From contig NC_043001.1 of assembly GCF_006345805.1 (NCBI RefSeq), forward strand, positions 112,530,001-112,594,000: a stretch of DNA of 64,000 nt, given 5' to 3'. This DNA is from Octopus sinensis (taxonomy: Eukaryota). Both the position numbers and the translations under genes were made by a program. Every line of letters begins with the position of its first letter. The first letter of the stretch is position 1. Under the pieces are notes generated by a model, which saw nothing but the letters and a program-made list of their open reading frames with translations, did no database searches and was not told where the DNA came from. Shown piece by piece: positions 25,833-60,279 of the stretch.

Positions 25833-26259
25833 AGTGGTTAGCCACATTTAAGTGGCAAATATGCTTTACATTGTCGTGCAGTTACTGTTTATACCTCGTT
25901 CAGACATTTATTATTGCTTATTTACACTTTTTCGAGATCAGTGACGAAAAGGATATATGTATTTGCATTAGGATCCCTTTGCATCAAAAACCAGTGATTG
26001 ACGTGCGCTGACGACGGGTAAATTCCCAGAAACCGGGTTCGTGCGTATCACGTCAGGTCGATGATGGGAAGGATGGCTTCCCTTTGCAAATACTGATAGG
26101 GCACAGAAAGTGTGTCAATAGCCAGCAGGAGAAGATGTTCTCCTTGGGCTACAAGCTACAGTAGCTTCCACTCTTAGTGGTTAGCCACATTTAAGTGACA
26201 AATATACTTCACATTGTCGTGCAGCTACTGTTTATACCTCGTTCAGAGATTTATTATTG
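25833..26259 (+). mobile_element. Retrozyme-like element: 343-bp unit with 84-bp terminal direct repeat and internal hammerhead
   Basis: 25833-25916 is repeated at 26176-26259 (offset 343, few substitutions). Hammerhead at 26001-26046. No recognisable protein ORF. Confidence 0.7.
26001..26046 (+). ncRNA. Type I hammerhead ribozyme motif, canonical core
   Basis: ACGTGCG | CTGACGA (26008-14) | CGGG-TAAATT-CCCA | GAA | ACC-G-GGT | T | CGTGCGT. Helix I is 7 bp with 2 G-U pairs; the first helix II pair is C-A. Confidence 0.7.
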
Positions 26260-26538
26260 AATGAATTAATTATTGGAATTCAATCTTTGGACACAACTGA
26301 AACAGGTGTAAGAGAATATGTTGGATTTTTTTCAGTTCATAAATTATATTAATGCTACATCTCCATTTTAAAAAAAATTAGCTTGTATATCGATAAACCA
26401 AGATTTATACTTAAAACTATTAGTTTATGAATATTACTATTTACAAAAAATTAATAGGTAATGAACCAATAATTCATTGGATATTTTTATCCCTTAATGA
26501 GGCTATTTAACCTTTAATTAAATATATATATATATACG

Positions 26539-47538: not shown

Positions 47539-47953
47539 AAGGCGGCGAGCTGGCAGAAGCATTAGCACACCGGGCGAAATGCTTAGCGGTATTTCGTCTG
47601 TCGCTACGTTGTGAGTTCAAATTCCGCCGAGGTCGACTTTGCCTTTCATCCTTTTGGGGTCGATTAAATAAGTACCAGTTACGCACTGGGGTCGATATAA
47701 TCGACTTAATCCGTTCCTCTGCCCTTGTTTGTCCCCTCTGTATGTAGCTCCTTGTGGGTAGTAAAGAAATAAGTATTTCGTCTGCCGTTACGTTCTGAGT
47801 TCAAATTCCGCCGAAGTCGACTTTTCCTTTCATCCTTTCGGAGTCGATTAAATAAGTACCAGTTACGCACTTGGGTCGATATAATCGACTTAATCCGTTT
47901 GTCTGTCCTTGTTTGTCCCTTCTGTGTAGCCCCTTGTGGGCAGTAAAGGAATA
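47539..47953 (+). mobile_element. Partial tandem dimer of SINE family C within one TSD
   Basis: Full unit 47539-47773 plus a second unit starting at internal TATTTCGTCTG. 17-bp TSD AGAAATAGCAATCCAAA at 47524-40 and 47954-70. Confidence 0.9.
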
Positions 47954-48157
47954 AGAAATAGCAATCCAAATACTTTTCAGTCAGATCTCAATGCTGAATG
48001 TTCATGAACCAGATGAAGGGCAGATATTCAATCACGGGATCATCTTGATTCCAAAAACGTATAATATGTCTATGTAGAGGAAATGTAGACTGAGATACAG
48101 AGGTCCCAGACGGACAGACAGAATCCCGCTTTTATTATCATTGATATATGGGGTGAC

Positions 48158-52429: not shown

Positions 52430-52562
52430 CCTCCTTCTTTCTTTCTTTCCTGAGCGTCCAATAATACTATATTTGTTCTCGCGTTGTTGTGTTTTTTTTG
52501 TGCTTTCATGTTTGGATTAACTTATATATATATATATAAATATATATAAATATATATTATAT

Positions 52563-52619
<57 letters not shown>

Positions 52620-52627
52620 TATATATA

Positions 52628-52665
<38 letters not shown>

Positions 52666-53158
52666 GTATTTATTTCGTTAGCTATTTTCCAGTAAATATC
52701 GGTACTTCGTTGTACCATATATTTACTTCTATGTATAATTTTCCCTCACGGGTTATTCATTACTGGAAAGCAATTTCTCTCGTATTGCATCACTATTTTT
52801 ATTGAAACTTCTTCACTGTTCTCGTTCTGTCAGCGTTTTGGCGTTTCAGTCGAGTGTATTGGCATTGATGTGGCAACATCTGAAATCTTGTCGTGGTATA
52901 TGTTGGCTGATGAAGATAAATCAATTATATGTGTGCAGGCATATCTTGAAAAATCTGAAACCGGTACCACATTATCCCTTTCTAGGTATTTCATCTTTCA
53001 GATGTTCTTCCTGGAGGTAAGACAATTTTTTTCAAGTTTGTTGCACACACGCATTTTTCCTAGTACATACGCGGTGAAGCTATACATTAGCGTCGTATTT
53101 ATTACGTTCGCTATTTTCCAGTAAATATCGGTACTTCGTTGTACCATATATTTACTTA
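52666..53158 (+). mobile_element. Retrozyme-like element: 429-bp unit with ~63-bp terminal direct repeat and internal hammerhead, inside (TA)n
   Basis: GTATTTATT(T/A)CGTT(A/C)GCTATTTTCCAGTAAATATCGGTACTTCGTTGTACCATATATTTACTT at 52666 and 53095. (TA)n on both sides. Confidence 0.75.
52900..52972 (+). ncRNA. Type I hammerhead ribozyme motif, canonical core
   Basis: ATG(T)TGG | CTGATGA (52907-13) | AGAT..TCAA..ATATGT-GTGCAG-GCATAT..TTGA..ATCT | GAA | ACCGGT | A | CCACAT. GUA triplet. Confidence 0.75.
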
Positions 53159-53165
53159 TATATAT

Positions 53166-53210
<45 letters not shown>

Positions 53211-53337
53211 GCATATATATACATATATACATACATGTATATATATATGTGTGTGTGTGTGTGTTTTATTTTATATACTTATGTTCATTTTAAGACGGTT
53301 AAATACAATGGAATATTCAGATTAAGTGTGTGTGTGC

Positions 53338-59946: not shown

Positions 59947-59968
59947 ACACACACTCACAAGTGTAACA

Positions 59969-60144
59969 CCCTTTGACTAAAATCAAAGTGTAGTATCTGT
60001 TTTATCAGCTTAATATTTGATAAGCTCTCTATTTGGGGTTATCGATATTTAAATGATTTTTCAAACAAGGCGGAGAGTTAGGATCTTGCTCCGCCTTTGC
60101 TACGGGTTCGCCTAGTATTGCAGTACTTCAAGGAATTATCCCAC
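59969..60144 (+). pseudogene. U2: U2 snRNA pseudogene (near full length, lacks ~12 nt at 5' end)
   Basis: CCCTTTGACTAAAATCAAAGTGTAGTATCTGTTTTATCAGCTTAATATTTGATA includes the branch-point pairing GTAGTA. Sm-site-like GATTTTT, GGATCTTGCTCC, loop IV TATTGCAGTAC. Multiple substitutions; followed by (CATC/CATA)n. Confidence 0.9.
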
Positions 60145-60279
60145 ATCCATCCATGCATACATACATACATACATACATGCATACATACATACATACATAC
60201 ATACATACATACATACAATGCATATACATTTATGTATGTTTATATCATACGCAAAATGGTCATTTTGTAATAAAATAAA

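Follow-up and report, generated by a model that had tools for sequence, protein, structure and literature searches.

Plant LTR retrozymes are non-autonomous, hammerhead-bearing elements whose type III hammerheads lie in true LTRs, together with a PBS, a PPT and a 4-bp TSD. The metazoan non-LTR retrozymes are described as short, low-GC, non-coding units of 150–450 nt that carry one type I hammerhead each and occur as dimers to multimers plus many monomers (PMC7229834; 10.64898/2026.07.22.740005), with active loci being defined by two consecutive hammerheads (10.64898/2026.07.22.740005). A link between retrozymes and PLEs has, according to the latter source, been argued chiefly from vertebrates so far. 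PLEs of the Neptune type and PAc/Poseidon are portrayed as 5'-truncated insertions with partial tandems and head-to-head inversions (PMC8557442, PMC11167929, PMC3846280); a one-sided tail and a bias for AT-rich or microsatellite targets are also on record (PMC8557442; PMC3846280), with a hammerhead upstream of the two 3' ends that bound the tail. In one account this tail was shown to correspond to the segment that separates two internal RT start sites (PMC11167929). MRC1 and similar Chlamys elements are non-autonomous and pLTR-forming, and their head-to-tail insertions were formerly taken for LTRs (PMC8557442).

Here we analyze a repeat at positions 52666–53157 of a 64,000-nt stretch of the Octopus sinensis genome (NC_043001.1, 112,530,001 to 112,594,000, forward strand; hereafter the window). 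In our judgement it is probably a 5'-truncated, 1.15-unit retrozyme copy that was likely inserted into (TA)n by the enzyme of an autonomous PLE and is likely inactive as a source. Like the plant LTR retrozymes, its family is non-autonomous and hammerhead-bearing, but the hammerhead is of type I and the length of the repeats is set by random truncation. The family shares with the metazoan non-LTR retrozymes, as described in the sources cited above, the kind of unit, the single type I hammerhead and the mixture of monomers and multimers, with its 429 nt at the upper end of their size range. Its helix III variants are like those of axolotl Amex1, in which a single pair carries a palindromic tetraloop, and of Amex2. 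It differs from them in its long helix II extension and strict (TA)n insertion. The features listed for PLEs also recur in the octopus family; on the other hand, it is without an RT/EN open frame, its tail is ~65 nt rather than 30–40 nt long, and both of its ends are situated in TA-like parts of the template, whereas PAc is reported to start at a site non-homologous to the target (PMC11167929). Chlamys elements generally have 3' sequence in common with autonomous partners and mostly lack the hammerhead (PMC8557442), whereas in the octopus family the hammerhead is conserved and no partner was found.

Layout of the element

The features of the locus are as follows.

52523–52665, no strand: (TA)n target microsatellite on the 5' side (repeat array, 89% matches)
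52666–53094, plus strand: full 429-nt unit, 36.6% GC; 52666 is a 5' truncation point and not a fixed end
52666–52728, plus strand: 5' copy of the 63-nt overlap, with two rare changes at 52675 and 52680
52768–52802, plus strand: zone of the family's "long" 3' ends (unit position ~125–140), where 74 of 228 arms stop
52892–52977, plus strand: type I hammerhead motif (motif scan; covariation)
53095–53157, plus strand: 3' copy of the overlap, stopping where the family has its "short" 3' end (unit position ~60–75; 128 of 228 arms and 44 of 50 single-arm loci)
53158–53248, no strand: (TA)n target microsatellite on the 3' side (array called at 53146–53248, 78% matches)

The original prediction, made by a model from the letters of the window, had described direct repeats of about 63 bp lying 429 bp apart with two mismatches, and 52666–52728 and 53095–53157 agree with it: their offset is 429 nt and they are mismatched at 52675 and 52680 only. 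The flanks had been called pure (TA)n. Arrays are indeed present on both sides (52523–52665 and 53146–53248), but they are slightly impure at the match levels given above, and because the flank is itself (TA)n, a target-site duplication would be indistinguishable from it. An LTR identity of the 63-nt repeats was ruled out, as the length of the overlap differs with 5' truncation among copies. Since the family combines random 5' truncation with two fixed 3' ends, the repeats are the overlap of a 1.15-unit cDNA.

No RT + GIY-YIG open frame was found in the 429-nt unit, which is therefore not an autonomous PLE. A circular reading frame of 143 codons (429/3, with one stop) was considered and dropped because it is not kept across the family. 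Units range from 410 to 440 nt, with longest stop-free stretches of 54–145 aa, and their length is divisible by three in just 14 of 54 full units; the reading frame is therefore not conserved and the unit is non-coding.

One unit of a large family

When the 2.7-Gb genome was searched at the DNA level, at least 115 pieces were returned from the 40 of 1,580 candidates that were scored, the best non-self match among them being at 96%. Exact matches to the hammerhead core numbered 89 genome-wide and those to a longer-helix-III pattern 81, while two more distant subfamilies (~80–85% identical) gave 209 and 168 pattern matches; the control was 0 in every case. A conserved 20-nt 3' motif had 1,833 genome matches, a count of units and not of loci, compared with 15 in the control. 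The element is one of ~1,800 units of a large non-coding hammerhead repeat family. Tandem dimers and multimers occur in it, with 2–4 hammerheads in one arm at 6 of 73 loci drawn with the 3' motif. The abundance of related copies, the tandem arrays and the permuted ends bear out the retrozyme-like identity proposed originally. That proposal had suggested a search for permuted copies, which recovered many genomic relatives with permuted ends, and with so many related copies the lack of relatives that was to count against it is not what the genome holds. Judged from its sequence, the family is a well-supported candidate for a metazoan non-LTR retrozyme with PLE insertion signatures. A literature search returned no paper on this octopus family or on the strict end pairing described below; the family may already be catalogued in Repbase or Dfam.

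The hammerhead motif and its predicted fold

Scanning both strands of the 64-kb window for CTGANGA, a helix II of at least 3 bp and GAAA identified 52892–52977 as the sole site. Helix I pairs 52892–52906 with 52967–52977, the core consists of CTGATGA (52907–52913), GAAA (52957–52960) and GTA (52964–52966), and the predicted cut falls between 52966 and 52967. Helix II (52914–52956) comprises 4 bp, an internal loop and an 11-bp extension, and the palindromic helix III, ACCGGT (52960–52965), consists of one A-U pair with a CCGG tetraloop. The paired helix II with its long extension, the ACCGGT palindrome and the GUA at 52964–52966 that had been reported originally were thus all located by motif. 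The accompanying description of a fully canonical core holds for the core letters but not beyond them, as A-U replaces the usual G-C at pair 10.1–11.1 and helix III has only one pair.

An Rfam scan of 52660–53165 gave six matches up to an E of 10, none of them to a ribozyme and with the hammerhead models unmatched, so the hammerhead assignment rests on motif and covariation. Among 33 hammerheads from across the subfamilies, 94.9% of cells pair, compared with 29–46% when partners are slid, and two-sided changes are found in 7 of 22 pairs (helix I, helix II and the extension). The sequences are related and the changes amount to a small number of subfamily-level events; of five shuffle measures, two were not exceeded (52/500 and 499/500). 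The compensatory changes across subfamilies therefore support the predicted hammerhead fold but give no probability for it. The core-proximal pairs of helix I have a predicted probability of just 0.2–0.4. A decoy helix (52893–98 with 52965–70) is present in whole-unit folds and has a probability of 0.06 in the local fold. The difference in conservation between the core and the rest (1.7% versus 6.4%) was set aside because the loci had been picked by core patterns.

Helix III occurs in the family as ACCGGT, as ACCTGCAGGT and in 12-nt forms, with 12 of 81 long forms exactly duplicating the 6 nt that end at the cut site. The sequence tree has a distorted root and does not fix the direction of these changes. 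For the helix III hairpin, the predicted energy is +6.0 kcal/mol in the short form (−8.3 as a self-duplex) and −3.3 in most long forms. Short palindromic helices III reportedly require dimers (PMC4209133; PMC7229834), and the one-pair helix III of the 52666–53157 copy is predicted to require one as well. The base at the cut site, A or C, mostly follows subfamily, although two loci differ between arms; hypermutation at this base was disfavoured on that account.

Insertion anatomy

Arms were collected from 145 non-redundant loci out of 170 fetched. The 3' ends of these 228 arms were found at unit position 60–75 in 128 cases, at 125–140 in 74 and elsewhere in 26, and a TA run follows directly in 173 of the 202 arms with a short or long end. 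The family therefore has two fixed 3' ends ~65 nt apart, both running into (TA)n. We infer that the short-end site is the main reverse-transcription start and that the zone at 52768–52802, where the present copy does not end, is a second one. The template is TA-like around both ends, with variable conversion to pure TA, which suggests annealing between target and template at these positions. A TTAC-NNN-TA stretch precedes the short end (52717–52737) as well as the ends of two autonomous PLE families (L161 and L177), and the long end is preceded by TTAC (TCAC in the 52666–53157 copy; 52788–52802). This stretch is possibly a shared start-site cue.

The 5' ends behave differently from these fixed 3' ends. 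At 73 loci, selected solely by the 3' motif from among its first 100 exact matches, the 5' ends of 94 arms are scattered across the entire unit, and the cut site is crossed in 57 of the 61 arms long enough to reach it. A linear cut monomer was rejected as the template since 5' ends do not pile up at the cut site (2/94). Together, the scattered ends and the read-through point to a circle or an uncut multimer. Single-arm loci in this sample have the short end in 44 cases and the long end in 6. With fixed 3' ends and a tail, 5' truncation, partial tandems, inversions and a microsatellite target, the family displays the signature of PLE mobilisation, and the retrozyme–PLE link is thereby extended by insertion anatomy instead of co-occurrence.

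The preferred account of the 52666–53157 copy runs as follows. A multi-unit source locus would be transcribed, and paired hammerheads would cut the transcript into 429-nt monomers that are likely ligated into circles. A PLE RT/GIY-YIG protein would nick (TA)n and prime cDNA internally at either of two TA-like sites, putative starts that lie ~191 and ~265 nt 3' of the cut. Synthesis would cross the cut site and halt at random, here after 492 nt, leaving the 63-nt overlap. In one purified PLE, insertion was independent of hammerhead cutting (PMC11167929). It is possible, though less likely, that PLE-mobilised spread proceeds from uncut multimers with no circle at all, the hammerhead being kept for folding, for protein binding or for cutting at another stage. 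Seamless cDNAs across the cut site are explained equally well in this manner, and hammerhead mutants still insert in vitro (PMC11167929). Against it, tandem units of one insertion have 10 locus-private alleles in common and 44 not, which fits repeated copying of one unit, although local duplication or conversion could equally have produced this pattern.

Head-to-head inversions make up 81 of 198 insertion clusters (188 loci) in a sample enriched for long copies. An unclassifiable end is present in 13 of the 81; the other 68 comprise 67 that join a short to a long end, one short-short and no long-long (P ~2e-19 for 67/68 under independent ends). Inverted arms have 11 private alleles in common versus 138 that they do not, 3 of the 11 being in duplicated loci. 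Such common alleles fit copying from one template species, and also local conversion. The end pairing, together with the private alleles common to arms and to tandem units, underlies a tentative reading: the family may record PLE inverted insertion in which copying of a single RNA circle proceeds from each of the two target strands, with a distinct fixed start for each, while duplications ending at the cut site would switch helix III between dimer-only and monomer-competent states. If a circle is indeed copied from both strands, the 429-nt unit would be a minimal substrate on which to dissect second-strand synthesis by PLEs, and would serve as a delivery RNA targeted to (TA)n. In any case, the near-strict pairing is the only result at the family level that merits pursuit. 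It quantifies a PLE feature hitherto called "optional" or "often at one end", which was possible because the unit is short and its copy number high, and it constrains models of PLE integration, a process left unresolved in the cited papers.

PLE enzymes in the genome

PLEs with RT + GIY-YIG open frames of 775–781 aa occur in the genome; they have 3' ends in (TA)n and the C-x4-C-x2-C linker described for Neptune (PMC8557442). Of 5,029 GIY-YIG candidates, 150 were scored, and the family profile had no match in 50 PLE loci. Likewise, the scores of 17 3' regions from these loci against the family did not exceed those of shuffled sequence, and no match to it was found in 20 loci belonging to other hammerhead families. 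As the sampled PLEs gave no sequence match, the autonomous partner is a putative one. Among the sampled loci is a young Neptune-type family (L161–L165), several near-identical copies of which have open frames of 781 aa; it has two 3' ends into (TA)n, and its 3' region is without a canonical hammerhead core. Two members (L161 and L165) have an upstream 479-aa frame without a Pfam match.

These data bear on the proposal that an autonomous PLE has the unit as its pseudo-LTR, in which case the 52666–53157 copy would be a pLTR remnant, solo or truncated, and not part of an independent non-autonomous family. Its architecture does match PLE ends, one sampled PLE (L177) has a hammerhead-like core ~200 nt before its (TA)n end, Xenopus retrozymes reportedly match pLTRs (10.64898/2026.07.22.740005), and the candidates scored were just the 150 above. 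We nevertheless consider it unlikely: arms circle the unit up to four times without ever entering other sequence, none of 74 single-arm upstream flanks are alike at one unit breakpoint (five flank pairs had common host repeats, but at different breakpoints), and the 50 PLE loci are without similarity to the family.

The 52666–53157 copy as a source

The non-autonomous retrozyme copy favored here had been singled out originally as the best candidate for activity. This stands only relative to the second hammerhead repeat of the window, at 25833, than which it is better preserved (best non-self match 96% versus 89%); within its own family it ranks poorly. It holds one hammerhead rather than two consecutive ones, and is a "monomer", not "active", in the terms of Li et al. 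2026 (10.64898/2026.07.22.740005). With a single hammerhead there is no double cleavage to release a monomer and no cis-dimer. Among nine Xenopus dimers, cleavage in vitro was reported for one and none for the other eight (10.64898/2026.07.22.740005). The copy has 9 rare alleles, more than 46 of 54 full units, one of which (G>T at 52925) disrupts a pair of the helix II extension. Its nearest relative is 2.2% away, which places it at rank 106 of 152 (median 1.5%). Contigs from four presumed-RNA runs cover the unit and have the family's alleles, not those of the copy, at 52753, 52759 and 52925, which is uninformative on expression.

That the copy is nonetheless an active source, transcribed, cleaving in trans or with protein assistance and seeding further copies, is very improbable: its core letters are intact, both putative RT start sites are present, and the PAc hammerhead is described as protein-assisted with uncut RNA able to serve as template (PMC11167929), but it has a single hammerhead whose helix III is predicted to favor the self-duplex over the hairpin, and, of its 9 rare alleles, 4 are in no other sampled locus and 1 is in one, so that the sample shows no daughter lineage. 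From its sequence, the copy is likely an inactive end product and not a source. Better source candidates are the loci with 2–4 hammerheads in one arm. As a truncated repeat copy the locus is unremarkable in itself; the family is of modest importance.

Other repeats in the window and genome

The second hammerhead repeat of the window (25833–26262) has a 343-nt period and belongs to an older large family, with 3,657 candidates. It had been called unrelated in sequence to the 52666 element, and blastn concurs (best E 0.27). A 76% relative of it is found at another locus (L168), on the strand opposite to a PLE open frame and ~0.9 kb upstream of that frame. Elsewhere in the genome, at least two further unrelated hammerhead families (L280–L299) have a long helix II, helix III of ACCATTGGT and ACCGAGGT, and ends in (TA)n, one with a 541-nt period. 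A 4.5-kb hammerhead spacing in this group (L280), looked at in the search for a partner, contains no PLE frame. The window also holds a U2 snRNA match at 59966–60149 (90.9 bits), which is without part of the first stem-loop and is likely a pseudogene, and two tandem copies of a 184-nt repeat at 47589–47955, which we take to resemble a common SINE-like repeat.
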